DNA from: an uncultured Acidobacterium sp.
GTDB lineage: Bacteria > Acidobacteriota > Vicinamibacteria > Vicinamibacterales > UBA2999
Reading direction: 5' to 3'
NCBI GenBank assembly: GCA_964350785.1
Contig: CAYGMD010000001.1
Span: forward strand, 6,853-70,852
Length of the DNA stretch: 64,000 nucleotides
How positions within the stretch are numbered: position 1 is the stretch's first letter; every line of letters begins with the position of its first letter. Both the position numbers and the translations under genes were made by a program. Positions 21,260 to 61,592 of the stretch are shown piece after piece. The notes below the pieces were generated by a model that was not told the origin of the DNA, made no database searches, and worked only from the letters and a program-made list of their open reading frames with translations.

Positions 21260-21790
21260 TTGCTCTATGTGCGCGGCGTCGAGATGGTGCCGATGCGCGA
21301 CGGGACCAGGCTCTACACGGTCATCCTGATTCTCAAGGGCGCGAAGAACCTACCGATGATCCTGACGCGCACGTGCTACAACGCGGAAGCTCGTGCGCCG
21401 CGCGCCGCGTGCCCAATGCCACCGGCAACGCCACGACCCCAGCCGGCGGGCAGGGATCAGCCCCGGGCCGGGAGCCGGTTGATTCGCCTCGCCTGATCAA
21501 CCAGCTCGGCTTGCCTGACGAAGTCTTCGTCAGCGCCGGATGGATTCGCATCTATCAGGACGTCCGCGGCAAGTACAACAGTGAAGGGCCGTACCTGATG
21601 ACGCCGCCGCCCGTGGGACCATTCAATGCCACTGGCGCAGATGACACCACCGACGGCTACGACACCATCGACTGGCTGGTGAAGAACGTGCCCGAGTCGA
21701 ACGGGCGCGTCGGCATGCTCGGCGCGAGCTACGAGGGCTACACCGTACAGATGGCGCTGTTGAACCCGGCGCACTGGATCCCGACTGGCA
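21260..21790 (+). pseudogene. remnant of a CocE/NonD-family (S15 X-Pro dipeptidyl-peptidase-like) hydrolase, frameshifted and 3'-truncated
   Basis: AGGAGG then TTG at 21260 gives ..VRGVEMVPMRDGTRLYTVILI..PMILTRT.YNA... Similarity continues in another frame (ORF 21112..21915): ..DEVFVSAGWIRIYQDVRGKYNSEGPY.. and ..TDGYDTIDWLVKNVPESNGRVGMLGASYEGYT... It is lost after ..ALLNPA near 21775, so at least two thirds of a normal protein is missing. Confidence 0.7.
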
Positions 21791-21797
21791 GTGCTCT

Positions 21798-21851
21798 CCC
21801 GTCAAGACGTGCCACCCCGTCAAGGTGTGTCGCCCCGTCAGGTTCTACCGC
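21798..21851. repeat. 3 x 18-bp direct repeat at the pseudogene truncation point
   Basis: CCCGTCAAGACGTGCCAC / CCCGTCAAGGTGTGTCGC / CCCGTCAGGTTCTACCGC. It overlaps the stop of the minus-strand gene at 21845. Confidence 0.6.
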
Positions 21852-45093: not shown

Positions 45094-45558
45094 ATGATTA
45101 ACCCCTCTTTCGGACACCAGACGCCGCCGGGCACCGGAATGCCGCCGGGTCCGCTGGAGAACGCGACCGGGCCGGCCGAGCGGCCGGCGCCGCGCACCGC
45201 CCTGGTCGTCGACGACGAGGCGCTCATCCGCTGGTCGGTCAGCGAGACGCTCGGTGAGTTGGGCTTCGACGTCGCGCAGGCCGCCGACGGCGCCTCGGCA
45301 ATGAGCGCCATTGCCGGCGCCGCCGCGGCCTTCGACGTCGTGGTGCTCGACCTGCGGTTGCCCGATGTGAACGACCTGTCGCTGCTGGGCCACGTGCGCG
45401 AACTGCTGCCGGCGGCCATGGTGGTGCTGATGACCGCCTTTGGCACCGCCGAAGTGGTGGCCGGCGCCCAGGCCCTCGGCGTCGCCGGCATCCTCAACAA
45501 ACCCTTCGAACTCGCCGAACTCAGCCGCCTGCTGACGCGCGACGGGCCGGCTTCGTAA
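45094..45558 (+). CDS. stand-alone response-regulator receiver protein (paralogue of 44563..45036)
   Basis: ..ALVVDDEALIRWSV.., ..DVVVLDLRLPD.. and ..LNKPFELAELSRLL... Confidence 0.85.
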   Translation: MINPSFGHQTPPGTGMPPGPLENATGPAERPAPRTALVVDDEALIRWSVSETLGELGFDVAQAADGASAMSAIAGAAAAFDVVVLDLRLPDVNDLSLLGHVRELLPAAMVVLMTAFGTAEVVAGAQALGVAGILNKPFELAELSRLLTRDGPAS

Positions 45559-46928
45559 TGGCCAATGCCACGATCCTGATCGTCGACGACGAGCAGTTGA
45601 TCCGCTGGTCGCTGGCCAGCCGCCTGAAGGACGAAGGTTACCGGATCCTCGAAGCCGGCACCGCCGCCGAAGCCCTGTCGCAACACCGCGAGGGCGTCGA
45701 CCTGGTGCTGCTCGACATCGGCCTGCCCGACGCCAGCGGGTTGTCGGTGCTCAAGCAGATCAAGGAATCGGATCCCGATACGCTGGTCATCATGCTGACC
45801 GGCCAGACCGGCGTGCAGACCGCGGTCGAGGCGATGAAGAACGGCGCCTTTCATTACGCCAACAAGCCGTTCGATCTCGACGAGGTCGTGCTGCTGGTCG
45901 AGAAGGCGCTCGAGACGACGCAGTTGCGCCGCGAGGTCCGCACGCTGCGGGCCCGGCAGGCCCAGCCCTACGGCCCCGAAAGCATCGTCGGCGAAAGCGC
46001 GCCGATCGTGGCGGTGCGGGCCATGCTGCAGAAGATCGGCGTCAGCCCCGCGTCGACCGTGCTGCTGACCGGCGAGAGCGGCACCGGCAAGGACCTGGCC
46101 GCCAAGGTCATTCACTACAGCAGCAACCGCGCCGCGCGGCCGTTCATGAACATCACCTGCTCGGCGCTGCCCGAGACGCTGCTCGAAAGCGAGCTGTTCG
46201 GCCACGAGCGCGGCGCCTTCACCGGCGCCGACCGGCAGAAACGCGGCCTGCTCGAGTCGGCCGACGGCGGCACGGTGTTCCTCGACGAGATCGGCGAGAT
46301 GGTGCCGCTGCTGCAGGCCAAGCTGCTGCGGTTCCTCGAGGAGAAGTCGTTCAAGCGCGTGGGCGGCTCGGCCGACGTCAAGGTCGACGTGCGCGTGATC
46401 GCCGCGACCAACCGTTCGTTGCAGGAAGAGGTCAGGAAGGGCCACTTCCGCGAAGACCTGTTCTATCGCCTCAACGTGATGGCGGTGCCGCTGCCGCCGT
46501 TGCGCGAGCGGCGGGACGACATCCCGCGGCTGCTGCGCCACTACATCGACCTGTTCAACGTCGAGTTCCGCAAGAAGATCGTGGGCGTGTCGCCCGGCGC
46601 GATGAAGGCGCTGCAGGCCTACGCCTGGCCCGGCAACGTCCGCGAATTGCGCAACGCCGTCGAGCGGGCCATGCTGCTGACCGAGAGCGCCGAGTTGTCG
46701 GAGGCGCAGTTTGCCATGCTCGGGGCGCCGGAGGGCGAGTTGTCGACCGGCATGGGCTTGCCGGCCAGCGGTATCAACCTCGAGGAGCTCGAACGGTCGC
46801 TGGTGGTGCAGGCGCTCGAACGCAGCGGCTGGAACCAGACCAAGGCGGCGACGCTGCTCGGCCTCAACCGCGACCAGATCCGCTACCGCATCGAGAAGTT
46901 CAAGCTGGAGAAGGCAACTCCACGGTAA
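45558..46928 (+). CDS. sigma-54-dependent Fis-family response regulator (NtrC-type bEBP)
   Basis: REC domain (..ILIVDDEQLIRWSL.., ..LVLLDIGLPD..), AAA+ domain with ..GESGTGKD.. and the ..GAFTGA.. sigma-54 contact loop, and a C-terminal Fis-type HTH ..NQTKAATLLGLNRDQIRYRIEKF... Confidence 0.93.
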   Translation: MANATILIVDDEQLIRWSLASRLKDEGYRILEAGTAAEALSQHREGVDLVLLDIGLPDASGLSVLKQIKESDPDTLVIMLTGQTGVQTAVEAMKNGAFHYANKPFDLDEVVLLVEKALETTQLRREVRTLRARQAQPYGPESIVGESAPIVAVRAMLQKIGVSPASTVLLTGESGTGKDLAAKVIHYSSNRAARPFMNITCSALPETLLESELFGHERGAFTGADRQKRGLLESADGGTVFLDEIGEMVPLLQAKLLRFLEEKSFKRVGGSADVKVDVRVIAATNRSLQEEVRKGHFREDLFYRLNVMAVPLPPLRERRDDIPRLLRHYIDLFNVEFRKKIVGVSPGAMKALQAYAWPGNVRELRNAVERAMLLTESAELSEAQFAMLGAPEGELSTGMGLPASGINLEELERSLVVQALERSGWNQTKAATLLGLNRDQIRYRIEKFKLEKATPR

Positions 46929-50062: not shown

Positions 50063-50761
50063 TTACACCGTGCGGCCAACGGCCCAGCCGGCCAGCGCGG
50101 TGAGACCCATGGCGAGCGCGCCCCATAACGTCACGCGCCATGCTGCGCGACCGGGGGGCGCGCCGCCGACTCTCGCCGCCACCGCCCCCAGCACCCACAG
50201 CAACACCAGCGACGCGACGGCAATCAGCGTTTGCGCCTGGGCCGCCGGCACCACCACCGCCACCAGGATCGGCAGAGTGGCGCCCACGGCAAAGCTTGCC
50301 GCCGAGGCGAGCCCGGCCTGCACTGGGTGGGCGGCCATCGTCTCGCTCAGTCCCAGTTCATCGCGCGCGTGAGCGCCCAGCGCGTCGACCGCGGTCAGCT
50401 TGCGCGCCACCTGATCGGCCAGGCCTTGATCCAGCCCCCGCTTGACGTAGATCGCGGAGAGTTCCCGCAATTCAAACTCCGGGTCGTCGGCCAGCTCCTG
50501 CCGCTCGCGGGCGAGTTCGGCCCGCTCGGTGTCGGCCTGTGAGCTGACCGACACGTACTCGCCGGCCGCCATCGACGCGGCGCCGGCCATCAGGCCCGCG
50601 ACGCCCGCCACCAGCGTGTCGCGCGGGTTCGACGAGGCGGCGGCCACGCCCAGCATCAGGCTCGCGGTCGAGATGATGCCGTCGTTGGCGCCGAGCACGG
50701 CTGCGCGCAGCCAGCCGATGCTGCCGGTGCGGTGCGACTCCTCTGCCGCGTGCGGGATCAT
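50063..50761 (-). CDS. VIT1/CCC1-family iron/manganese transporter
   Basis: Start is MIPHAAEESHRTGSIGWLRAAVLGANDGIISTASLMLGVA.., aa 106 of ORF 50063..51076. ..AGEYVSVSSQ.. motif and C-terminal TM helices. Confidence 0.85.
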   Translation of the reverse strand: MIPHAAEESHRTGSIGWLRAAVLGANDGIISTASLMLGVAAASSNPRDTLVAGVAGLMAGAASMAAGEYVSVSSQADTERAELARERQELADDPEFELRELSAIYVKRGLDQGLADQVARKLTAVDALGAHARDELGLSETMAAHPVQAGLASAASFAVGATLPILVAVVVPAAQAQTLIAVASLVLLWVLGAVAARVGGAPPGRAAWRVTLWGALAMGLTALAGWAVGRTV

Positions 50762-51046
50762 GTCGATCGCGAGGCTAACATGGGCGTCAGAAATCGTGCA
50801 TGGCGGCCGGCGGGAACGCGGCCCTGAGTGCGATCGCTCGCATGCGCCGCGAGAGGTGCATGAACTCGTCGACCTTCTTGAGCGGCGCCAGCAAAGGTAC
50901 TCGCCGAGCCACAACGAGGTGAGCCGTGGGGATCCTCCGAGATTCCGGAGTCCTGGTGACGGCGGAAGAGGGGATCTTTCCGCGAATTCTTGAAATATTC
51001 CCCGCATTTTCGCGGCTTGGGGCGGACCCCACGGCGAGCGAGCAGG

Positions 51047-51062
51047 CGGCTGGATTCTTGCA
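51047..51062 (+). promoter_or_regulatory. weak sigma-54-like element upstream of the cytochrome locus
   Basis: CGGCTG-GATTC-TTGCA, about 100 nt upstream of the ATG at 51160. Confidence 0.35.
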
Positions 51063-51159: not shown

Positions 51160-51510
51160 ATGATCAATTTAAACCGTCTCGGTTGGCTGGCAGTAGTCGC
51201 GCTGATCGGATCGCCGCTGGCGGCGCCCAGCGCGGCGGCCCAGACCCCGGCAGAGAAAGGCGCGGCTGTGTTTGCGGCGCAGAAGTGCTCGCTCTGCCAT
51301 TCGCTGGACGGCAAGGGCAACGCGAAGGGCGTCCTCGACGGCGTCGGCACGAAGTTGACGGCGGCCGAGATTCGCCAGTGGATCGTGACGCCGGCCGAGA
51401 TGGCCGCCAAGGCGAACGCGACCCGGAAGCCGGCGATGAAAGCCTTCCCGAACCTGGCGAAAGACGACCTCGACGCCCTGGTTGCGTTCCTCTCGTCGAA
51501 GAAGAAATAG
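51160..51510 (+). CDS. monohaem class-I cytochrome c, exported
   Basis: Start is MINLNRLGWLAVVALIGSPLAAPSAAA. One CSLCH motif and a distal ..KPAMKAF... Confidence 0.85.
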   Translation: MINLNRLGWLAVVALIGSPLAAPSAAAQTPAEKGAAVFAAQKCSLCHSLDGKGNAKGVLDGVGTKLTAAEIRQWIVTPAEMAAKANATRKPAMKAFPNLAKDDLDALVAFLSSKKK

Positions 51511-51552
51511 CATTTTTCTGTCGTCGTACTCTTACTTGTTTTCGGAGGCGTT

Positions 51553-51888
51553 ATGTTGCGGTTCTGCTCACTGACACTGATGATCCTCTTCGGCGCCCTG
51601 GTCCTGTCGGCCAGCCCGGCATCCGCGCAGGCCGACGGCGCGAAAGTCTACGCAGCGCAGAAGTGCTCGATGTGCCATTCGGTTGCCGGCGTCGGCAACA
51701 AGAAGCTGCCGCTCGATGGCGTCGGCACGAAGCTGAGCGCCGATCAGATCCGCGAGTGGATCGTCACCCCTGCCGAGGCCGCGAAGAAGGCCAACTCGAC
51801 GGCCAAGCCGGCCATGCGGGCGTATGCCTCGCTGCCGAAGGCCGATGTGGATGCGCTGGTCGCCTACATGAAGTCGCTCACCAAGTAG
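51553..51888 (+). CDS. monohaem class-I cytochrome c, exported (paralogue)
   Basis: Signal peptide, CSMCH and ..KPAMRAY... Shares ..LDGVGTKL.A..IR.WIVTPAE.A.KAN.T.. with the upstream gene. Confidence 0.85.
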   Translation: MLRFCSLTLMILFGALVLSASPASAQADGAKVYAAQKCSMCHSVAGVGNKKLPLDGVGTKLSADQIREWIVTPAEAAKKANSTAKPAMRAYASLPKADVDALVAYMKSLTK

Positions 51889-51895
51889 GTGATGC

Positions 51896-52921
51896 ATGTC
51901 GGCCCGGTTCGTGTTCGTGGTTGGTGCGCTCGCGGTCTGCCTGCTGGCAGCCGCGGCGCCCGCCGCAGCGCCGGCGGCGCCCGCTGACGACGACTGCCTG
52001 GCGTGTCACGGCGACAGCACGGCGACTCGAGCCAACGGCTCGAGCGTCGCGGTGGCGCCGGACCTGCTCGCCAAGTCGGTCCACGGCACGCTCACCTGCG
52101 TGAGCTGTCATGCCGGCCTGGCCAAGACCACCGAGTGGCCGCATCCCGAGAAAGTCGAGGCGGTCGCCTGCTCGACCTGCCACGGGCAGGAAGGCAGCAA
52201 CTACGACGACAGCGTGCACGGCCGGGCCGTCCTCAAGAGCGGCCTGGCGGTCGCGCCCCGCTGCGGCACCTGCCACGGCACCCACAACATCCAGCCCCCA
52301 TCCAACACCGACAGCAGCGTCCATCGCGCCAGGATCGTCGGCACCTGCACGACGTGCCACGAGGGCATTGCGCCGTGGTACGCGAAGAGCGTGCACGCGC
52401 AGCCGCTCGGGCCCGCGGGCGGCGCGGCGGCGGTGTGCTCCGACTGCCATACCGCGCATCGGATCCAGCGCGGCGACACCGACGGCTGGCGCCTGGCGGT
52501 GATCGACGAATGCGGCACGTGCCACTTACAGCGCATCTCGTCGTACCGCGACAACTTCCATGGCCAGAAGACCACGCTCGGCTCGACCCGCACCGCCACC
52601 TGCAGCAGCTGCCACGATCATCACGCGATCCTGCCGGCGGGCAATCCGGCCTCGACCGTCGCGCCGCAGAATCTCGTGGCCACCTGCCGCGGCTGCCATC
52701 CGCAGGCGAGCGCCGCGTTCGTCAAGTACGACCCGCACGCCGACAAGCACGACCCGGTCCGCAGCGCGCCGGTCTACTGGACCTATCGGTCCATGCAGGT
52801 GCTGCTGCTCGGGGTGTTCGCGTTTTTCGGGGCGCACACGCTGCTCTGGTTCCCGCGGTCGTACCGGGCGCGGCGTGAGCGGCGCGCGGCCGCGGCGGCC
52901 ACAGGGGACACCTCATCATGA
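51896..52921 (+). CDS. nonahaem c-type cytochrome with a C-terminal TM helix
   Basis: Signal peptide. Nine CxxCH motifs (CLACH, CVSCH, CSTCH, CGTCH, CTTCH, CSDCH, CGTCH, CSSCH, CRGCH). TM ..VLLLGVFAFFGAHTLLWF... Confidence 0.85.
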   Translation: MSARFVFVVGALAVCLLAAAAPAAAPAAPADDDCLACHGDSTATRANGSSVAVAPDLLAKSVHGTLTCVSCHAGLAKTTEWPHPEKVEAVACSTCHGQEGSNYDDSVHGRAVLKSGLAVAPRCGTCHGTHNIQPPSNTDSSVHRARIVGTCTTCHEGIAPWYAKSVHAQPLGPAGGAAAVCSDCHTAHRIQRGDTDGWRLAVIDECGTCHLQRISSYRDNFHGQKTTLGSTRTATCSSCHDHHAILPAGNPASTVAPQNLVATCRGCHPQASAAFVKYDPHADKHDPVRSAPVYWTYRSMQVLLLGVFAFFGAHTLLWFPRSYRARRERRAAAAATGDTSS

Positions 52922-53736
52922 CCTCCGGCGCCCGTCACATCGTCCGGTTCAAGCCGTATCAGCGGGCGATGCACTTCGTCCTGTTCACCAGCTTTCTCGG
53001 CCTGGCGGCGACCGGCCTGCCGTTGATGTTCAGCGACCGCCCATGGGCGGGCACGCTGGCGCGCGGCCTCGGCGGCATCCAGATGGCCGGCGTGCTGCAC
53101 CGGATCTTCGCGGTGATGCTGCTGGCGCTGTTCGCGGGCCATCTCGCCGAGTTGGCGTGGCGGCTCACGCGGCGCAAGGAGCACGGCCTGCTGTGGGGGC
53201 CGACCTCGATGATCCCGCAGCCGCACGACGCGGTGCAGATCTGGCAGCACGTCCTGTGGTTCGTCGGCAAGGCCGCGCGGCCCCACTTCGACCGCTTCAC
53301 CTACTGGGAGAAGTTCGATTACTGGGCCGTCGTCTGGGGCATGGTCATCATCGGCGGATCGGGACTGTTGCTCTGGTTCCCGGAATTCTTCGCCACGTTT
53401 TTCCCGGGCTGGATCTACAACGTGGCACTGATCCTGCACGGTGAAGAAGCCCTTCTGGCGACGGGCTTTATCTTCACGATACATTTCTTCAACAGCCACT
53501 TCCGGCCCGAGAAGTTCCCGATGGACATGGTGATGTTCACGGGGCGGGTGACCGAGGAGGAGCTGCGGAGCGAGCGCCCCGCCGAGTACGCGCGGATGGC
53601 GAACGACGGCACGCTCGACACGCTGGTGTCACCGCCCGCCCCCGGCTGGCTTTCGCTGGCCGGCCGCGTGGTCGGCGGCGCGGCCGTGGCTCTCGGTCTC
53701 GTGTTGCTGGTGTTCATCCTTGTGGGGACGTACTAA
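52918..53736 (+). CDS. b-type cytochrome membrane subunit (FdnI/HydC/Ni-Fe-hydrogenase cytochrome b-like)
   Basis: ATGA overlap with the nonahaem gene. ..IVRFKPYQRAMHFVLFTSFLGLAATGLPL.. resembles the family N-terminal motif. About 5 TM helices with His in TM1, TM2 and TM4/5. Confidence 0.75.
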   Translation: MTSGARHIVRFKPYQRAMHFVLFTSFLGLAATGLPLMFSDRPWAGTLARGLGGIQMAGVLHRIFAVMLLALFAGHLAELAWRLTRRKEHGLLWGPTSMIPQPHDAVQIWQHVLWFVGKAARPHFDRFTYWEKFDYWAVVWGMVIIGGSGLLLWFPEFFATFFPGWIYNVALILHGEEALLATGFIFTIHFFNSHFRPEKFPMDMVMFTGRVTEEELRSERPAEYARMANDGTLDTLVSPPAPGWLSLAGRVVGGAAVALGLVLLVFILVGTY

Positions 53737-55137
53737 ATGAGTGAGACCTTGCCGCCTGCCGAGGCGTCGTCGCCGGTTGCTGTGTTGCGGAATCCAACCA
53801 CGGTGGCCGGCGCGCTGCTGACGACGATTTCGGTGCTCCTGTTCCTCGGCTTCTTCATGGTCGAATTGGCCGGCGTCACGGGCCACGAAAACCCGTATCT
53901 CGGCATCATCTTCTTTATCACGCTGCCGACCCTGGCCGTCGTCGGCCTGCTGCTGATCCCGCTCGGCGCCTGGATGGAGCGGCGGCGCCAGCTAAAGGGC
54001 CGGCCGCCCAGCCTGCGGCTCTGGCCGCGAATCGATCTCAATCACCCGCAGACGCGCGCGATCCTGTTTGCCATCGCGGCGCTGACGCCGGTCAACATGC
54101 TGATCGTCTCGGCCGCCGCCTACAAGGGCGTGGAGGCGATGGACTCGGTGGAGTTCTGCGGCGCGACCTGTCATGAGGTGATGGAGCCGGAGTACGTCGC
54201 CTATCAGAACGGTCCGCATGCGCGCGTCAAGTGCGTGTCGTGCCATATCGGCTCGGGTGCCGGCTGGTTTGCCAAGTCGAAGCTGTCGGGCACGCGCCAG
54301 GTGTTCGCGGTGCTGTTGAACACGCATAGCCGGCCGATCCCGTCGCCGGTGCACGACCTGCGCCCGGCGCGAGAAACCTGCGCCGAGTGCCACTGGCCAA
54401 CCCAGTTCCACGGCGACAAGATCGAGACCCGGCACGAGTTCGCCGCCGACGAAGCCAACACCGAGTCGGTGACCACGCTGCGGCTGCGCATCGGCGGCGT
54501 CGACGCGACAGGCAAGCCGGGAGGCATCCACTGGCACGTGGCCGAGCAGAACATCGTCGAGTACATCGCCCTCGACCGGGATCGGCAGAAGATCGGCTAC
54601 GTCAAGCTGACGACCGCCGACGGCGGGACGCGCGAGTACTACAGCGAAGGCGTGACCGAGGCGCAGCTCGCCGCCGGCGAGCGCCGGCGGATGGACTGCG
54701 TCGACTGCCACAACCGCCCGAGCCACATTTTCGCGCCGTCGGCCGAGCGCGCGGTCAACGTCGCGATGGCGGCGGGGGCGATCAGCAAGGACCTGCCCTT
54801 TGCGAAGCGCGAGGCGGTGGCGGCGCTGACCACGCTTTATCCCGATCGCGCCACCGCCGAACGCGAGATTGCCAATCGGGTGAGCGCGTTCTACCGCGAT
54901 GGCTACCCCGCGCTGTGGACGTCGCGGCAGGCCGACATCGCCCGCACCGTGCAGGGGGTACAAGCCTTGCACAGCCGTAACGTGTTCCCGGCGATGAAAG
55001 TGACATTCGGAACCCACCCGGACAACAAGGGCCACACGGAGTTCCCTGGCTGTTTCCGGTGTCATGACGAGGAGCACAAAACTCGAGATGGCAAGGTGAT
55101 TTCGCAGGACTGTTCGACGTGTCATGAGGTGTCCTGA
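53737..55137 (+). CDS. membrane-anchored NapC/NirT-like multihaem cytochrome (3 N-terminal TM helices)
   Basis: Starts directly after the upstream stop. Has three hydrophobic helices. ..FCGATCHEVMEPEYVAYQNGPHARVKCVSCHIG.. is NapC/NirT-like. Five CxxCH plus one CxxxCH. Confidence 0.8.
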   Translation: MSETLPPAEASSPVAVLRNPTTVAGALLTTISVLLFLGFFMVELAGVTGHENPYLGIIFFITLPTLAVVGLLLIPLGAWMERRRQLKGRPPSLRLWPRIDLNHPQTRAILFAIAALTPVNMLIVSAAAYKGVEAMDSVEFCGATCHEVMEPEYVAYQNGPHARVKCVSCHIGSGAGWFAKSKLSGTRQVFAVLLNTHSRPIPSPVHDLRPARETCAECHWPTQFHGDKIETRHEFAADEANTESVTTLRLRIGGVDATGKPGGIHWHVAEQNIVEYIALDRDRQKIGYVKLTTADGGTREYYSEGVTEAQLAAGERRRMDCVDCHNRPSHIFAPSAERAVNVAMAAGAISKDLPFAKREAVAALTTLYPDRATAEREIANRVSAFYRDGYPALWTSRQADIARTVQGVQALHSRNVFPAMKVTFGTHPDNKGHTEFPGCFRCHDEEHKTRDGKVISQDCSTCHEVS

Positions 55138-55218
55138 CGAGGGTACGTCGGAGAAGAAGCGGTGGAAATTCCCCACCGATCGGGAAGATTCAGCACCGGC
55201 CCGGTCCGGAGGACTTAT

Positions 55219-56199
55219 ATGTCGATCACCAAATATGTCTTCGTCTTAACAGCCGGCCTCTGGGGGGCGGTGTTCGTGACGCGCGGTGTCGCGTCGCCAC
55301 CCCCGCCGCCGCCACCGGCACCTGTCGTCGTCGAGGCCGCTGCTGCCGAGACGCCCTCGCAGGCGGCGCCCCAGACCCCGCAAGCGGGGTTCATCGGCGC
55401 CGAGGCCTGCGCCACCTGCCACGAGGGCTACGACAAGAGCGTCGAAGGGACCAAGCACGGGTTCAAGGCCAACAGCCGCACGCCGATGGCCAAGATGGGC
55501 TGCGAGTCGTGCCATGGCCCGGGCGAGGCGCATGCCGGCGACCCGGAGAAGATCAAGCCGATTCAGTTTGACAAGGTCAAGGCGAGCGACGCGAACCGGC
55601 AGTGCCAGACCTGCCACAACCGGGGTGAACACGCCCTGTGGGACGGCAGCCAGCACGAGAACCGGAACCTCAAGTGCGTCGACTGCCACAGCGTCCACTC
55701 GGCCCAGGGGCCGGTCCTGATGCGGGCCAAGACGCAACAGATCACGTGCGCCCGCTGCCATCAGACCGTCACCAACAAGCAGCAGCGCTTCAATCACATG
55801 CCGGTGCGCGAGGGCAAGATGACCTGCGCCTCGTGCCACAACGTGCACGGCTCGGTGAACGTGAAGCTGCTGCGAACGGGCACCACCGTGGACCAGAGCT
55901 GCACGAGTTGCCACACCGAGAAGCGCGGGCCCTTCCTGTGGGAGCACGCTCCGGTGGTGGACAGTTGCACGACATGCCACGACTCGCACGGCAGCAATAA
56001 CGACCGGATGCTCGTCGCCAAGCTGCCGTTCCTCTGCCAGCGGTGTCATGTGACCTCGCGGCATCCTCCAACCGTTTACGAGGGCTTCACCCTGAACAAC
56101 TCGCAGAACGCCAACAAGATCTACGGCAAGTCCTGCGCGAACTGCCACCAGCAGGTTCACGGGTCGAACCACCCTAACGGCAAGTTCTTCTTGCGGTAA
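55219..56199 (+). CDS. MtrA/DmsE-family periplasmic decahaem c-type cytochrome
   Basis: ATG after GGAGGA. Signal/anchor sequence plus a Pro-rich linker. Ten CxxCH motifs. The C-terminal half ..CTSCHTEKRGPFLWEHAPVVDSCTTCHDSHGSNNDRML..LCQRCH..GKSCANCHQQVHGSNHPNGKFFLR closely matches my recollection of Shewanella MtrA. Confidence 0.92.
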   Translation: MSITKYVFVLTAGLWGAVFVTRGVASPPPPPPPAPVVVEAAAAETPSQAAPQTPQAGFIGAEACATCHEGYDKSVEGTKHGFKANSRTPMAKMGCESCHGPGEAHAGDPEKIKPIQFDKVKASDANRQCQTCHNRGEHALWDGSQHENRNLKCVDCHSVHSAQGPVLMRAKTQQITCARCHQTVTNKQQRFNHMPVREGKMTCASCHNVHGSVNVKLLRTGTTVDQSCTSCHTEKRGPFLWEHAPVVDSCTTCHDSHGSNNDRMLVAKLPFLCQRCHVTSRHPPTVYEGFTLNNSQNANKIYGKSCANCHQQVHGSNHPNGKFFLR

Positions 56200-56209
56200 C
56201 TGGAGGCAT

Positions 56210-58624
56210 GTGATGCGCAACCGAACTCTGACAATCTGTGCGGCACTGCTACTGGCCTCCGCCCACCAGGCGCTGGCGCAGACGCCGCCGACCAAGCCTC
56301 TGCCGCCTGCTGGCGTGCCCACCGTTGGCCTGGTGGACTTCGGCTTCCGCGGCGGCAGCACTGACGGAGACGAAGCGCGCTTCGAGCGCTACCGGGACCT
56401 GCGCCCGGGGGCGACGACGTTCTTCGAGATGAACAAGGATACGGACAAGTACCGGTTTGGGGCCCGCGCCTCCAACATGGGTTACCGCGACCAGCGCTAC
56501 GCGGCCGAGTACACCAACGGCAGATTCACGATGAGCGGCCTGTATGACGCCATTCCGCTGAACTACCTCTACGACGCGCCGCTTGTGTGGCAGGGCGACG
56601 GCCGCGGCAGGTTCACGCTGGACCTGTCGGCGCGCCAGGCCGTCCAGGGGCCGACCAACCTGCCGGGCGACGGCACGGCAGTGGGGGTACCCTGCGCCCC
56701 GGGCCTCGGACCGACCAGCTGCAACGCCACCACCGCGGCGGCGGCCAAGGCCAACCGGTCGATCTACAACCAGTTGCTGCGGCCGGACGACATGGAAGTG
56801 CTGCGCAGCATTGCCGGAGTGAAATTCACTTACTCGCCGACGCCGTCGTTTGACATCGACGCGGACTTCTCGTCGACCGGCCGCAATGGCTCGATGCCGT
56901 GGGCGGCGTCCTTCGCCTTCAGTAACGCCAACGAGCTGCCGGCGCCGATCGACCACCGTAACAACGAGCTCAAGGCCGGCACCGAATGGGTAAGCGGCAA
57001 GGGCATGTTCCGACTGAACTACTGGGGCAGCTTCTTCGAGAACAGCGTGCAGACGCTGACCTGGGACAACCCGATTCGGGCGACGGACTTCAGTAATGGC
57101 CTGCTGCCCCCGAGCGGGCCTTATGACCCGAGCGCCTACAGCAACGGCAATGGTCCGGCGCTTGGACAGACCGCCCTGTGGCCGAGCAACACGCTCAACT
57201 CGTTTGGCGTCACCGGGATGTACAAGGTGCTGCCCAAAACCACGGTCAACGGCAACGTGCAACTGACCTATATGCGGCAGAACGAGTCGCTGCTGCCGTG
57301 GTCGCTCAATTCGTCGGTCAATAACGCTGCCGTCCTGGATGTATTCCACGGCTTGCGCGCCCTTCCCCGGGCCTCGGCACAAGCCGAGGTGAACAGCCTG
57401 AACGCGTTGGTCAATTTCAACAGCCGGCCGACGAGCTACCTCACCCTGCAGGCGCGCTACCGCTACAACGAGCACGACAACAACACCCCGCACTTCGACG
57501 GCCGCGAGTACGTGCGCTTCGACGGCGTGCCCGAGGAGCTGCGCGACGATCCGTTGACGCCGTTTGTCGAAGGCTTCTCGGAGTACTTCCACATCACGCG
57601 GAAGAACTTCGACGCCAACGCCACGTTCGGGTTGCGCGACATGGGCTCGTTGCGCGTGGGGTACGCCAACGAGATGTTCGAACGCGAGGGGCGCGGCTTC
57701 AGCGATGTGTCGGAGAACATGTTCCGGGCGGCCTATGACGCCAACCTGTTCAGCCGGGCCACGGTCAGGGCCACTTTCGACGCGGGCAGCCGGCGCGGCG
57801 ACGGCTACATCCTGAGCGGCATCGACTACGAGTTGGGCCCGGCGGGCACGCAGCCTGGGCTGCGTTACTACGACGAGGCCGATCGCGATCGGACGCGCGC
57901 GGCCTTCATCTTCAGCGTCAATCCGGCGCCGATGGTCGACCTGTTCGTGCAGTGGTCCACCACCCGGGACACGTTCCTGGCCGACGAGTCGATTCCCGCC
58001 GGCCGCGAGCAGTTCGGCCTGTTGAGCCAGGACGTCGACGCGGTGGTCGCGGGCCTCAACTTGAACCCGAACGACACCGTGCACTTCGGGCTCAGCTGGG
58101 GGCGCGATGAGTTCGACGCCTTGCAGAAGTCGCGTAACGCCAGCCCGCCGCCCGACCCGAGCTGGACCGACCCGGCCCGGAATTGGACGCTCGACAACAA
58201 CGAGGTCGTGAACACGCTGATGACCTCTCTCGACTTGATCGGGCTGGCCGACTCCAAAGCGGACATCCGGTTCAGCTACGAGATGAACGACTCGGATAAT
58301 GCGTTCACCTATGGCGGCCCGCGCATCGCGGCCCTGCAGGTGGCCAACACCTTCATCCCGCTGCCCAACGTCGTCAACGAGTGGCAGCGCGTCACCGTCG
58401 ACCTGAAGTACTTCCTGACGTCGAAAGTCGGCGCCGGCATCGGCTACGCCTTCGACAAGCAGAACATCACCGACTTCAACACCATCGATTCCAACGGTCC
58501 CGTGGGCTTTGCGGACGCCACGGGCGTCCCGCGGATCGATTGGCTGGGCAGCCTGAGAACCGGCTACGGCAATCGGCCCTACGAGGGGCACCGGGTGTTC
58601 GCGCGCCTGCTGTATCGCTTCTAG
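56210..58624 (+). CDS. MtrB/PioB-family decahaem-associated outer-membrane beta-barrel
   Basis: 10-nt gap after the decahaem gene. Signal peptide ..LLLASAHQALAQ. 804 aa, beta-rich. ..FRGGSTDGDEARFERYRDLR.. start region and a C-terminal ..RLLYRF. Confidence 0.85.
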   Translation: MMRNRTLTICAALLLASAHQALAQTPPTKPLPPAGVPTVGLVDFGFRGGSTDGDEARFERYRDLRPGATTFFEMNKDTDKYRFGARASNMGYRDQRYAAEYTNGRFTMSGLYDAIPLNYLYDAPLVWQGDGRGRFTLDLSARQAVQGPTNLPGDGTAVGVPCAPGLGPTSCNATTAAAAKANRSIYNQLLRPDDMEVLRSIAGVKFTYSPTPSFDIDADFSSTGRNGSMPWAASFAFSNANELPAPIDHRNNELKAGTEWVSGKGMFRLNYWGSFFENSVQTLTWDNPIRATDFSNGLLPPSGPYDPSAYSNGNGPALGQTALWPSNTLNSFGVTGMYKVLPKTTVNGNVQLTYMRQNESLLPWSLNSSVNNAAVLDVFHGLRALPRASAQAEVNSLNALVNFNSRPTSYLTLQARYRYNEHDNNTPHFDGREYVRFDGVPEELRDDPLTPFVEGFSEYFHITRKNFDANATFGLRDMGSLRVGYANEMFEREGRGFSDVSENMFRAAYDANLFSRATVRATFDAGSRRGDGYILSGIDYELGPAGTQPGLRYYDEADRDRTRAAFIFSVNPAPMVDLFVQWSTTRDTFLADESIPAGREQFGLLSQDVDAVVAGLNLNPNDTVHFGLSWGRDEFDALQKSRNASPPPDPSWTDPARNWTLDNNEVVNTLMTSLDLIGLADSKADIRFSYEMNDSDNAFTYGGPRIAALQVANTFIPLPNVVNEWQRVTVDLKYFLTSKVGAGIGYAFDKQNITDFNTIDSNGPVGFADATGVPRIDWLGSLRTGYGNRPYEGHRVFARLLYRF

Positions 58625-58747
58625 GAACTAACCAGGGGGCGGCTACCGCAGCCGTCCCCTGAACGGTGTGAGGTTGAGCCGCAAGGCACTGCGGCCGGGG
58701 ATGCGCGGCTCGCCGCCGAACACGTTGCCAAAGCAAGGAGGGGTTCC

Positions 58748-59191
58748 ATGCGCACTCTCGCCGTTCTCACCCTCTCGGCCGTCCTCGCCGGCTGTGCCCC
58801 ACCCAAGCCCGTCCGCATCGTGGAGGGCGAAGCCTGCGCGCGCTGCCGACGCCCTATCGACAACCTCCAGGTTACAGCTCAGCAAGTGTCGCCGAACGGC
58901 TTCGGCACCAAGTTCAGAACCGTGCACTGCATGGCGACCTGGATCGCCCAGCAGAAGGCGCCGGTCGACGGCCGTTACTGGGTCACCGACTACCAGCGGC
59001 GCCGGTGGATTACGGCGGAACGGGCCACCTACGTACGGGTGGTGATCAACCCCAACTCGATGGAGCGCGACTTCATCGCGTTTGCCGACGCGGCCGCCGC
59101 CGAGGAAGCGGCGCGGACCAATCAGAGTACGACCGTTCGCTGGGCCGATGTGATCGAGCTTGGACGGACGTCGCCGCTCGGCGGCAGCTGA
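58748..59191 (+). CDS. NosL-like lipoprotein (putative metallochaperone)
   Basis: AAGGAGGGG RBS. Lipobox ..VLAGC... ..CARCRRPIDN..(F)..HCMATW.. and ..NSMERDFIAFADAAAAEEAA...VRWADV.. resemble the NosL pattern. Confidence 0.5.
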   Translation: MRTLAVLTLSAVLAGCAPPKPVRIVEGEACARCRRPIDNLQVTAQQVSPNGFGTKFRTVHCMATWIAQQKAPVDGRYWVTDYQRRRWITAERATYVRVVINPNSMERDFIAFADAAAAEEAARTNQSTTVRWADVIELGRTSPLGGS

Positions 59192-59203
59192 CACCATGCT
59201 GAA

Positions 59204-59509
59204 ATGAGTTGTTACGAGGATCTCGCGGCGATCACGACCAGGAGCTTTCACCGGGGACTGTCGTGCGGGGGCTGCCACGGTCCGGCGACGGGCCACGCGG
59301 CCGACCCTGGGGCGATGAAGCCGCCCGCGCCGCGCGACCGGAAGTTCTGCCCGGTCTGCCATTTCTACGACCCGTCGCGGCCAACCGGCTTCCCGCAGAT
59401 CAATCCGACGGCGCACAATCCCCTCAAGCAGTGCATCGCGTGCCACAGTCCGCACGACCCGGCGACCTCCGCAGCAAGGCCAGCCGGCTGGTGCGCTTCG
59501 CGCGGATGA
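59204..59509 (+). CDS. trihaem cytochrome c fragment-like ORF without a signal peptide
   Basis: CGGCHGPATGHAADPG.. (similar to the second haem site of the decahaem protein), CPVCH and CIACHSPHDP. There is no N-terminal export signal, so it may be truncated or frameshifted. Confidence 0.45.
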   Translation: MSCYEDLAAITTRSFHRGLSCGGCHGPATGHAADPGAMKPPAPRDRKFCPVCHFYDPSRPTGFPQINPTAHNPLKQCIACHSPHDPATSAARPAGWCASRG

Positions 59510-59611
59510 ACAAGATCCACGTCCTCAAGCCGGCGCTCAACACCGAGCCCAAGGTGTACTACGCCCAACTCGACGGAGAAGTGCGGTGAGCCCCGAAGCG
59601 ACGGCGCGGTT

Positions 59612-59866
59612 ATGAGCCTGATCGTGCTGCAGGTGCTGATCGGCATGCTGGTGCCGCTGGGCATCCTGATCATCGCCAAGTCGCGGAAGCTGAGCGACGA
59701 CGGCCGCCGGCTGCTCTACTTCACGGCGGTGATCCTGATCCAGATGGGCATCGAGGGGTTCCTGACCGCCCTCGGCCTGCTGATCCTGCCCTTCGTGGTG
59801 CTGGCGGTCCTGATCAAACTGCTGCCGACGCGGCCGCTCGCCGGGGAGGCGCACTCGCCCGCGTGA
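59612..59866 (+). CDS. small hydrophobic hypothetical protein (2-3 TM)
   Basis: 84-aa ORF with strongly GC3-biased codons. Sequence MSLIVLQVLIGMLVPLGILIIAK...LLILPFVVLAVLIKLL. The RBS is weak. Confidence 0.45.
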   Translation: MSLIVLQVLIGMLVPLGILIIAKSRKLSDDGRRLLYFTAVILIQMGIEGFLTALGLLILPFVVLAVLIKLLPTRPLAGEAHSPA

Positions 59867-59876
59867 GCACCGGCGA

Positions 59877-61592
59877 TCAGCCGGGCAGCCGCCGCAGCCG
59901 CGGCACCAGCACCAGCGCGGCGCCGTAGCAGGCCAGCGCCGCGAACAGGGTCGAGGCCTGCGAGTGGCGAAGGTCGATCAACACCAGCTTGACGCCGGCC
60001 GCCGCGAGTAGCGGATACGCGAGGTGGCCCAGGACCGAGAAGCGTCCGGTGCGCGACACCCCCGCGCACCCGAGCGCGAGCCCCGACAGGGTGGCGGTTC
60101 GGATCGTGGTCACGACGTCGGCGCTCACCGGCAGCGACAGGGCGCCGGCCGCGGCGGCCAGCGCCGGCGCGACCAGGCCACCGATCCCGCCCACCGCGAC
60201 CACGCCGAGGGCCAGGCCGGGCGCGTCGGCCGCCGACAGCGCGAGGCCGCGGCTGGCGGTCAGCCGGCTCCCACACAGGGCAAGCACCACCGCCAACACC
60301 ACCAGCGCGGGCCACTGCGCCAGGTCCACGGACGCCGCGGCGCCCATGAACAGCGCCAGGCCCAGGTTCACGAGGCCGGCGTCTTCGGAGGCGGCCACCA
60401 GGGCAATCGCCGTGTGCGCGCCAAGGGTGGCCCGCGACGACCGCGACCACGCCGCCGCCAGCGCGATGCCCACGCCGGTCAGGGCCAGCGATCGGGCCGC
60501 GTCGTGGAGGGCCGTCCACGTCCCCGCCATCGTGAAGATCAGCGCCAGCGAACTGTAGAAGTAGAAATTGAGCGCGCCGGGCGCCTGGCGCGCCAGGAAC
60601 TGGAAGGACACGGCATACGCGGCCGCACCCAGGCCGACAATGGCGCCGCCGAGCAGCAGGTCGTTCCCTTCGACGGTGTGCCCAACGGCAATCATGCCCC
60701 CGAGGCCGACGGCAAGCACCAGCACCGTCTGCACGAACTCGAACACGATCACCTGGCGGCCGCGCACCAGCGTGCGGACGGCGATCGAACCCAGATAGGC
60801 CAGCAGCAGGAACAGCTGGCTCGCCCACGCCAGCGAGGCGGAATCGACCGGCGGCTGCGTCATGGCGCGAACGGTGACGCCCAGCACGGCGAGGCACGCC
60901 AGTGCCCCGGCCGGCCAGCGCAAGCCGCGCCACTCACGCAGGTAACCCAGCCACAACGTGGCGACGCCAAGGCTCGTGAAGAAGAACGCGACGGGCGCCA
61001 GCGTGCCGGTCCGCGCCATCAGCGTCAGCCCGGTCGCGAGTGCGCCCGCGGTGGTCAGCCACGCGAGGACCGAAGTCCGGCCGTAGTTGGCGCAGAGCAG
61101 CGCACAGGCGGTGAAGAGGCCGAGGGCCACGGCGGCACTCACCGGCGTGAACAGCCCGAACTTGAGCGCCGCTTCGACGATCAGCGGGAAGCCGATGATG
61201 AGCGCGGTCCCGCCATCGAAAATTGCGCGCAAGCGGTGGCCGGCGGCGGCCGAGCGCGTGGAGGTGGCCAGCCAGGCCAAGGCATACAGGAGGCCCACCG
61301 CCACGCCCGCGGCCGGCGGCCAGGTGCCGGCCTCGGTGAGGGCGCGCAGCAGGAAGGCGCCGCCGAGGATGATGAGCGATCGCCCGAGGTTCGTGAGACC
61401 GCCCAGCAGGTCGAACGCGGGGCGTGGCGCCGGCCGAGCGGCTTGGGCGAACCCGCCCGCCGCGGCCGGCGGCGCGGCGCCCTCGATGACGGCCAGGCGG
61501 GCTTCGACCTCCGCCAGGCGGCGGGTCAGGACCGCAATTTGATCGTCGATCGAACCCGTCGGAGGCGGCATCTTCATACCCTCCCGGGACAA
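59877..61592 (-). CDS. DUF2339-like polytopic membrane protein
   Basis: An N-terminal coiled segment (..DDQIAVLTRRLAEVEARLAVIEG..) is followed by more than 12 hydrophobic helices. Confidence 0.7.
   Translation of the reverse strand: MSREGMKMPPPTGSIDDQIAVLTRRLAEVEARLAVIEGAAPPAAAGGFAQAARPAPRPAFDLLGGLTNLGRSLIILGGAFLLRALTEAGTWPPAAGVAVGLLYALAWLATSTRSAAAGHRLRAIFDGGTALIIGFPLIVEAALKFGLFTPVSAAVALGLFTACALLCANYGRTSVLAWLTTAGALATGLTLMARTGTLAPVAFFFTSLGVATLWLGYLREWRGLRWPAGALACLAVLGVTVRAMTQPPVDSASLAWASQLFLLLAYLGSIAVRTLVRGRQVIVFEFVQTVLVLAVGLGGMIAVGHTVEGNDLLLGGAIVGLGAAAYAVSFQFLARQAPGALNFYFYSSLALIFTMAGTWTALHDAARSLALTGVGIALAAAWSRSSRATLGAHTAIALVAASEDAGLVNLGLALFMGAAASVDLAQWPALVVLAVVLALCGSRLTASRGLALSAADAPGLALGVVAVGGIGGLVAPALAAAAGALSLPVSADVVTTIRTATLSGLALGCAGVSRTGRFSVLGHLAYPLLAAAGVKLVLIDLRHSQASTLFAALACYGAALVLVPRLRRLPG

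Follow-up and report, generated by a model that had tools for sequence, protein, structure and literature searches.

A predicted quinol-linked porin–cytochrome conduit with ImcH-like and split CbcL/MtoC-like partners in Vicinamibacterales

Decahaem–porin gene pairs have been described together with inner-membrane and periplasmic cytochromes in several arrangements. In the mtoABCD clusters of Gallionella capsiferriformans ES-2 and Dechloromonas aromatica RCB, MtoAB is accompanied by MtoC, a nonahaem–cytochrome b protein, and by the monohaem cytochrome MtoD (PMC6295460, PMC5566968). The mto cluster of Sideroxydans lithotrophicus ES-1 comprises MtoA, MtoB, MtoD, PmcA and the NapC/NirT-family protein ImoA (PMC13390432, PMC9600427); there, PmcA links MtoA to ImoA in the inner membrane, and for MtoD, transfer to a high-potential acceptor has been suggested (PMC13390432). 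A 2018 survey found neither mtrAB nor mtoAB next to any imcH gene (PMC6295460). A 2026 survey of karst metagenome-assembled genomes (MAGs) describes ‘Group 2’ clusters with a small decahaem cytochrome, a porin of 25–36 strands, ImcH- or NapC/NirT-like inner-membrane cytochromes and, in some, petB/petC; 21 of its 36 porin–cytochrome-carrying MAGs were Acidobacteriota or Gammaproteobacteria (PMC13264449). Here we analyse a cluster of nine genes, g1 to g9, at 51160–59509 on the forward strand of a 64-kb stretch of DNA (the window; contig CAYGMD010000001.1) from an uncultured acidobacterium of the order Vicinamibacterales. All coordinates are positions within this window unless a related locus is named.

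The cluster most likely encodes a quinol-linked conduit of the MtrAB/MtoAB/PioAB porin–cytochrome type that would span the cell envelope. The list of open reading frames (ORFs) confirms all nine genes on one strand, with successive gaps of 42, 7, −4, 0, 81, 10, 123 and 12 nt, none of which holds a terminator-like site on the forward strand. From g1 to g9, the genes carry 1, 1, 9, 0, 5 (plus one CxxxCH), 10, 0, 0 and 3 CxxCH haem-binding motifs. An earlier note on this stretch had listed nine closely spaced same-strand genes with these motif counts, among them two paralogous monohaem cytochromes, a CbcL-like pair of nonahaem and b-type cytochromes, an ImcH-like cytochrome of NapC/NirT type, a decahaem–porin pair of the MtrA/DmsE and MtrB/PioB families and a NosL-like lipoprotein; coordinates, gaps and motifs were all re-derived here, and each of these assignments is borne out by the evidence given below for the gene concerned. 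A stop-to-stop scan of the frames of the window found at least two CxxCH motifs beyond the cluster only in a cytochrome linked to Rieske and cytochrome b genes at the 3′ edge, so that an MtrC/OmcA-like gene is absent from the window, as the earlier note had also reported for the extracellular decahaem. The family and architecture of the parts, the coupling of the genes and their recurrence are read directly from these data; from them we infer the assembly, the oxidation of quinol, the substrate and the direction of flow.

The first half of the outer-membrane pair, g6 (55219..56199, forward strand), belongs to the MtrA/MtoA/DmsE family of periplasmic decahaem cytochromes. It covers all 258 positions of the DmsE-family decahaem profile TIGR03508 (257.8 bits against a cut-off of 192.2) and matches the solved MtrA of Shewanella baltica (6R2Q_A) over residues 60–324 (phmmer, E = 4e-63), with 41% identity across 273 residues that include all ten CxxCH motifs. 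The earlier note was thus right about the family, but the likeness to MtrA that it placed in the C-terminal half extends over the whole haem domain. PioA carries an N-terminal extension of about 200 aa (PMC6831781); in g6 it is missing, and a Pro/Ala-rich linker of some 35 aa is all that is present.

Its partner g7 (56210..58624, forward strand) is an outer-membrane beta-barrel of 804 aa in the MtrB/PioB family, the predicted sheath for g6. It matches the Pfam profile MtrB_PioB (PF11854) from position 3 to 635 of 635 at 240.4 bits (cut-off 23) and ends in LLYRF. An AlphaFold2 model built with 40 homologues has 26 long strands, the number also found in the solved MtrB; its mean pLDDT is 63.7, with the strands well and the loops poorly modelled. 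Searched against the PDB with Foldseek, the model returns MtrB (6R2Q_B) first, at E = 1.1e-22 and TM-scores of 0.52/0.62, and the second-ranked fold class, 22-strand TonB-dependent transporters, follows at E = 2.5e-8, about 14 orders of magnitude behind. An N-terminal CXXC is a mark of the Shewanella-type, metal-reducing MtrB. Its absence from g7, which the earlier note had pointed out, is confirmed: the only cysteines of the mature region are C162 and C171, in CAPGLGPTSC (CX8C). This pair is invariant, as CAPGxGPTxC, in 40 MtrB-like homologues of 64–89% identity, and may be the counterpart of the CXXC of Shewanella MtrB. It sits in a poorly modelled loop. In public data, MtrB clusters with an identity of 64% or higher number at least 120, and the porins of the relatives bear the NCBI/JGI name “MtrB/PioB family”.

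On the inner-membrane side, g5 (53737..55137, forward strand; 466 aa) is, by its TM helices and haem motifs, an ImcH-family cytochrome with an NrfH-like quinol module. The family is defined by three N-terminal transmembrane (TM) helices, an atypical CX3CH beside the TM domain and five to nine CX2CH motifs (PMC6295460). Hydropathy gives g5 three TM helices, at residues 23–41, 56–74 and 108–126, followed by CX3CH (CGATCH) at residue 141 and by CxxCH at 166, 215, 321, 439 and 459. By motif position, its spacing of 24, 49, 106, 118 and 20 follows that of Geobacter sulfurreducens ImcH, GSU3259, at 24, 49, 106, 117, 20 and 38 (Table S3, PMC6295460), and the spacing of the six-motif homologues from Anaeromyxobacter, Geothrix and Acidobacterium matches that of g5. 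Aligned with a 504-aa, seven-motif member of the family (41% identity over 454 residues, E = 2e-127), g5 ends just before the seventh haem; the motif positions of that relative are those of a listed Rokubacteria homologue. The NrfH-like profile TIGR03153 scores 49 bits, and the sole solved relative by both sequence and fold is NrfH (2J7A_C), which matches only the module after the third TM helix. Through this module, g5 would oxidise quinol.

The g5-like family is large, with more than 7,700 clusters at 90% identity and 3,387 representatives at 50% identity (E ≤ 0.001). Among its 150 best representatives, 139 contain the CX3CH motif, and most have three predicted TM helices. Two regions of g5, at about 227–318 (predicted to be beta-rich) and about 336–415 (helical), have no solved structural relative. 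A methionine three residues past the CX3CH histidine, M149, is invariant in 45 homologues (CGxxCHxxM), a pattern that recalls the CXXCHXM of NrfH haem 1. Vicinamibacteria also hold a separate seven-motif ImcH-type paralogue (P0404–P0407, 487–492 aa) with 38% identity to g5 (P0226), and a search seeded with a seven-motif ImcH-type representative returned proteins of Vicinamibacteria, Pyrinomonadaceae, Rokubacteria and NC10.

Directly upstream of g5 are two genes that together have the make-up of one known protein family. Members of the CbcL/MtoC/MtrH family combine an N-terminal c-haem domain of 3–23 CX2CH motifs, nine in CbcL and MtoC, with a C-terminal HydC/FdnI-like b-type domain that has 4–6 TM helices and conserved histidines. 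The nonahaem cytochrome c g3 (51896..52921, forward strand) has a signal-like N-terminus and, by hydropathy, one C-terminal TM helix at 302–320; g4 (52918..53736, forward strand) is a HydC/FdnI-like b-type cytochrome with four clear TM helices and a fifth, weaker one at about 165–190 inferred by eye, which brings the pair to about six helices, five of them clear in hydropathy. The match of g4 to Pfam Ni_hydr_CYTB is 30.7 bits (cut-off 30.1) and that to the formate dehydrogenase gamma profile TIGR01583 is E = 3.9e-11, under the cut-off of that profile; its histidines H19, H61, H75, H174 and H189 are invariant in six orthologues. In a comparison with a published table of motif positions, the haem spacing of g3 (34, 24, 31, 28, 30, 25, 30 and 28) lies nearer to the MtoC-type rows (40, 23, 53, 31, 31, 25, 30 and 28) than to those of Geobacter CbcL, its last five values (28, 30, 25, 30, 28) being close to 31, 31, 25, 30 and 28. 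The stop of g3 overlaps the start of g4 by 4 nt (ATGA), placing the two domains in two genes and not in one polypeptide, and the same split is kept in the related loci L001, L010, L012, L015 and L017. On predicted domain content and motif positions, g3 and g4 are the c-haem half and the membrane half of a split CbcL/MtoC-type protein.

The earlier note treated the split pair and g5 as two different inner-membrane modules, a view that needs modifying: g3, g4 and g5 are encoded as a single, translationally coupled trio, which is found again as a unit in relatives, in one case with no mtrAB beside it. Because their gaps are −4 and 0 nt and they are inherited jointly, the supposed two modules appear to act together. 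A single complex, or two obligatorily co-expressed partners, is as likely an outcome as two alternative routes.

The two genes that open the cluster, g1 (51160..51510) and g2 (51553..51888), both on the forward strand, encode paralogous periplasmic monohaem class I cytochromes c with 56% identity and one CxxCH each. Pfam Cytochrom_C matches g1 at 42 bits and g2 at 43.8 bits, and g1 also matches Cytochrome_CBB3. Each contains a single histidine, so the sixth haem ligand is not His and bis-His ligation is impossible. Among solved structures, g2 comes closest to the c domain found in subunit II of caa3 oxidase and to cytochromes c4 and c552. Homology of g1 and g2 to MtoD was considered and rejected, as MtoD is not among the PDB matches at E up to 10 and bis-His ligation is lacking; at most, the two are functional analogues of MtoD. 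Class I cytochromes of this His/Met type usually have a high potential.

The nearest relatives of the cluster are in Vicinamibacterales MAGs, with up to 89% identity; an exact-sequence look-up with g7 gave no match. The order of one or more cytochromes c, the nonahaem cytochrome, cytochrome b, the ImcH-like protein, MtrA and MtrB recurs in five related MAGs and three shorter contigs, being found in L001, L010/L011, L012, L015/L016 and L017/L018. The g3–g4–g5 trio also occurs once alone, without mtrAB, and L002 and L004–L009, again of Vicinamibacterales, carry mtrAB without the trio. On this distribution, mtrAB forms the conserved core, to which the trio is a mobile, though recurrent, addition. 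In L004–L007, the stand-alone mtrAB is preceded by a sigma-54 activator gene and followed by genes for MgtC/DUF4010, Usp and an HMA-type P-type ATPase.

If the parts assemble as their families suggest, the co-translated g3–g4–g5 trio would trade electrons with the quinone pool at the inner membrane, through the b-haems of g4 or the NrfH-like site of g5. The periplasm would be crossed by the soluble g1 and g2 and by the haem chains of g3 and g5, and the outer membrane by the decahaem g6 threaded in the 26-strand barrel of g7. The outermost haem of g6 would serve as the surface contact without MtrC/OmcA, as in MtoAB and PioAB. Quinol could be supplied by the breakdown of organic substrates or by a nearby uptake hydrogenase.

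At its downstream end, the cluster has lost a further module. The earlier note listed g9 (59204..59509, forward strand) as a trihaem gene; the closest relatives show it to be a deletion remnant, since they hold an intact octahaem/NrfC/NrfD module at this place. Positions 59233–59464 match the middle of the octahaem gene of L001 (12735–12966) at 82%; the full L001 gene encodes 243 aa with eight CxxCH motifs and an N-terminal TM helix. Because g9 matches an internal piece of this membrane-anchored cytochrome gene, has no signal peptide and has a frame that runs into a deletion junction, it is a pseudogene fragment. It is followed by the final 146 bp of a gene for an NrfC-like 4Fe-4S protein (59460..59605, forward strand; 90% DNA identity to L001 13901–14046), which still encodes the peptide KASRLVRFARMNKIHVLKPALNTEPKVYYAQLDGEVR found in the 268-aa protein of L001, and by the 3′ remnant of a gene for an NrfD-family membrane subunit (about 59612..59866, forward strand), which matches L001 14889–15028 and from 15113 onward; the intact L001 protein scores 134 bits against Pfam NrfD. 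Compared with L001 12414–15235, 59204–59866 shows three clean deletions, of about 934 bp before the NrfC remnant, about 842 bp, and about 84 bp in nrfD. At the first two junctions, the flanking alignments overlap by a few bases. The module is intact in L001, L008, L015 and L017. In L001, L015 and L017, mtrB is followed by the octahaem gene (243 aa), the NrfC-like 4Fe-4S gene, nrfD, a membrane-protein gene (about 570 aa) and the Rieske/cytochrome b/multihaem genes.

Where the 5′ part of the octahaem gene would be, the window has g8 (58748..59191, forward strand), a NosL-like lipoprotein by its match to Pfam NosL (PF05573; 39.2 bits, cut-off 24) and its lipobox LAGC, with no NCBIfam match. An orthologue of 50% identity lies directly after mtrB in L012, and none is found in L001, L015 or L017. 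A random insertion was considered and rejected: because the L012 orthologue also follows mtrB, NosL is a recurrent alternative and not noise.

Other neighbours were located by annotation, among them the two groups that the earlier note had named, a hydrogenase and a Rieske/cytochrome b/multihaem complex. A [NiFe] uptake hydrogenase (small subunit, large subunit and cytochrome b) with hyp maturation genes occupies about 29.5–39.5 kb, the hydrogenase with its cytochrome b lying 12–15 kb from the cluster. On the 3′ side of the cluster, a gene for a polytopic membrane protein of 571 aa (59877–61592, reverse strand), with an N-terminal coiled-coil-like segment and no Pfam match, is followed by genes for a Rieske protein (61678), cytochrome b (62156) and a multihaem cytochrome (seven haems or more; 63165 to the window end). 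The gene for the 571-aa protein lies between the NrfD and Rieske genes in L001 and L015, and is inverted in L017/L018; in L015, a multicopper oxidase gene (21677–22412, reverse strand) stands just past the Rieske/cytochrome b/multihaem genes. Beside g1, a divergent gene for a VIT1-family Fe2+/Mn2+ transporter (50063–50800, reverse strand) adjoins the cluster. In L015/L017 (2800–4718, reverse strand), a gene for an E1–E2 P-type ATPase separates VIT1 from the first cytochrome c gene, with none in the window, and P-type ATPases occur near the cluster in L010, L015 and L017. Annotation covered approximately 35 kb of the window, and no carbon-fixation genes were seen there.

Genes for a PAS kinase and a sigma-54 activator (the latter at 45558–46928) lie 3–5 kb upstream of the cluster. 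A candidate sigma-54 (−24/−12) element, CGGCTGGATTCTTGCA, is found at 51047..51062 on the forward strand, about 100 nt upstream of g1, and an identical 16-mer precedes the cluster in L010, L017 and L018. It agrees with the consensus at 13 of 16 positions, as do 91 equally good matches in the window, making a sigma-54 promoter before g1 a weak lead. In L005–L008, perfect sites (TGGCAC-N5-TTGC, 16/16) lie 100–130 nt after a gene for a receiver-less activator, upstream of mtrA, and a second match nearer mtrA scores 15/16 in L006–L008 and 13/16 in L005.

In which direction electrons would run through such a conduit cannot be told from the sequence, as the earlier note maintained: the evidence is mixed, and the MtrA/MtoA sequence itself gives no direction. 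The lineage is heterotrophic, its cultured Vicinamibacteraceae being organoheterotrophs. Our preferred reading, to which we give a probability of roughly 0.5, is outward flow, in which extracellular Fe(III), Mn(IV) or humics would be respired under oxygen scarcity. It is favoured by that heterotrophic lineage, by the nearby uptake hydrogenase, by the lack of carbon-fixation genes in the annotated part of the window and by the literature on ImcH, homologues of which have been reported only from Fe(III) reducers and which, with CbcL, serves outward transfer in Geobacter (PMC6295460). The VIT1 gene beside the cluster can be listed in its support, and the metal-transporter neighbours as a group (VIT1, P-type ATPases, MgtC and NosL) are compatible with a metal substrate whichever way electrons run. 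Several observations weigh against outward flow or against the assignments on which it builds. The porin g7 is a divergent member of its family, with 176.1 bits against the curated cut-off of 240.05 of TIGR03509 and a weak phmmer match to the solved MtrB (E = 3e-5). The comparisons of g5 with GSU3259, and of g3 and g4 with GSU0274 and MtoC, are of published motif and TM coordinates, not of aligned sequences. Many Vicinamibacterales carry mtrAB alone, so the linkage of the trio to mtrAB is not obligatory. MtoC, the CbcL homologue closest in haem spacing, and paired monohaem cytochromes are mto features of Fe(II) oxidisers (PMC5566968, PMC13390432); the Rieske/cytochrome b/multihaem complex is a conserved neighbour; and the His/Met-type, oxidase-like g1 and g2 are easier to reconcile with an inflow from Fe(II) to an oxidase than with an outflow towards Fe(III).

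These last points are the starting point of the opposite reading, possible though distinctly less probable, in which g6 and g7 would oxidise extracellular Fe(II), and possibly Mn(II) or reduced humics, in a Mto/Pio-like uptake that hands electrons to g1 and g2. From there, electrons would pass downhill to a terminal oxidase or to the Rieske/cytochrome b complex, and also uphill through the split MtoC and the ImcH-like protein to quinones. As in MtoB/PioB-type systems, MtrC/OmcA and the porin CXXC are missing, the spacing of g3 leans towards MtoC, the two monohaem cytochromes recall MtoD and PmcA of ES-1 (PMC13390432) even though they are not MtoD homologues, and PioAB/MtoAB homologues have been reported as widespread in Acidobacteria (PMC10654088). 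Set against this are the ties of ImcH to Fe(III) reducers, the organoheterotrophic cultures and the missing carbon-fixation genes, which most porin–cytochrome MAGs of the 2026 survey also lack (PMC13264449). An unlikely variant would let the conduit run both ways: the CbcL/MtoC-like and ImcH-like proteins would serve different potentials, and the same MtrAB would carry electrons in or out according to oxygen and to the redox state of soil iron, manganese and humics. Both families are indeed found in one translationally coupled unit, ImcH and CbcL have separate potential windows in Geobacter and imcH stands beside cbcL in several Desulfuromonadales MAGs, by supplementary locus tags (PMC6295460), and close relatives add a third quinone module, octahaem/NrfC/NrfD, as well as the Rieske/cytochrome b complex around mtrAB. 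Such tight coupling, however, suggests a fixed stoichiometry and one complex rather than alternative routes, no sign of differential regulation appears inside the operon, and the third module is dispensable, having decayed in the window. Least probable by far is a role in metal homeostasis or detoxification, in which the conduit would reduce extracellular Cu(II), Fe(III) or toxic oxidants together with metal transporters and the NosL-like lipoprotein. The neighbours are consistently metal-related, with VIT1 by g1, the P-type ATPases of L010, L015 and L017, the HMA-domain ATPase and MgtC/DUF4010 beside the stand-alone mtrAB of L004–L007, and NosL after mtrB in the window and in L012; yet the presence of three or four quinone-linked respiratory modules next to mtrAB speaks for bulk electron flow, a pathway that respires or oxidises iron would be just as likely to have Fe2+ efflux genes beside it, and NosL is not conserved in the closest relatives.

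More doubtful than the conduit itself is a reading of its inner-membrane end in which the split CbcL/MtoC and the ImcH-type protein form one supercomplex dedicated to MtrAB, a reversible or potential-adaptive link between menaquinone, supplied with electrons by H2 and organic substrates, and extracellular iron, manganese and humics. If true, ImcH would here be seen for the first time to partner an Mtr-type conduit instead of one of Geobacter type. Pairing of imcH and cbcL extends past Acidobacteria, as adjacent locus tags in MAGs of Desulfuromonadales and Syntrophobacterales indicate (A2X79_01185/01190, A2X96_02390/02395 and A2X92_08560/08565; Tables S2/S3 of PMC6295460, not discussed in that paper).

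In soil and the subsurface, Vicinamibacterales rank with the most common bacteria, and they are considered to be aerobic heterotrophs. A haem pathway that is complete from the inner membrane to the cell surface and recurs within the order suggests for them a role in the redox cycling of soil iron, manganese and humics, and the pathway is common in public data, with thousands of metagenomic ImcH-like homologues. The interest of the locus is mainly ecological; our literature search found no specific study linking Vicinamibacteria to extracellular electron transfer. Because inner-membrane cytochromes of Geobacter type are joined here to an outer-membrane conduit of Shewanella/Mto type, the locus also offers a natural test of the interchangeability of modules.

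The arrangement is less new than the earlier note supposed when it called it undescribed: its essentials are known from mtoABCD, from the mto cluster of ES-1 and from the decahaem–porin clusters of the 2026 survey. Every family involved is known, and the gain over existing knowledge is incremental. The locus stands out by the presence of an ImcH-type gene within an mtrAB operon, coupled there to what we predict to be a split CbcL/MtoC, and by the way in which quinone-linked modules have been gained and lost around mtrAB in a single order. The karst ‘Group 2’ clusters can be likened to the locus by their brief survey description, in which the parts are not dissected.

Compared with Shewanella MtrCAB (6R2Q), the locus shares a decahaem cytochrome 41% identical to MtrA, with its ten haem sites aligned, and a 26-strand barrel with MtrB as its top fold match. 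It differs in lacking MtrC/OmcA and CymA, in having CX8C rather than CXXC in the porin, and in the porin itself, which is about 100 residues longer than Shewanella MtrB and weakly similar to it in sequence. The resemblance to Geobacter lies at the inner membrane: g5 has the three TM helices of G. sulfurreducens ImcH (GSU3259), the CX3CH after the third helix and near-identical spacing of the first six motifs, and g3 with g4 has the nine c-haems and six-TM, dihaem-b-type layout of CbcL (GSU0274). Unlike GSU3259, g5 has no seventh haem, a trait it shares with the homologues of Anaeromyxobacter, Geothrix and Acidobacterium, and unlike the window, Geobacter has a fused CbcL, conduits of the OmbB–OmaB–OmcB type and, in G. 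sulfurreducens, unlinked imcH and cbcL.

The mto clusters resemble the locus in more of its parts. With that of ES-1, it has in common the decahaem–porin pair, two monohaem periplasmic cytochromes and one inner-membrane cytochrome of the NapC/NirT family. ImoA of ES-1, however, is CymA-like, with one TM helix and four haems, in contrast to the three TM helices and six motifs of the ImcH-type g5; ES-1 has no CbcL/MtoC; and its two monohaem cytochromes belong to distinct families, whereas g1 and g2 are recent paralogues. From mtoABCD, the locus differs in that the MtoC counterpart is split into overlapping genes, an ImcH-type protein is added and the monohaem cytochromes are not MtoD homologues; it also belongs to an acidobacterial heterotroph lineage, in contrast to the betaproteobacterial iron oxidisers that host mtoABCD. 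Both have a decahaem cytochrome and a porin but lack an extracellular decahaem, and both combine nine c-haems with a HydC/FdnI-like b domain and include a monohaem cytochrome; in the haem spacing of g3 and the TM layout of g3 and g4, the locus resembles proteins of MtoC type.

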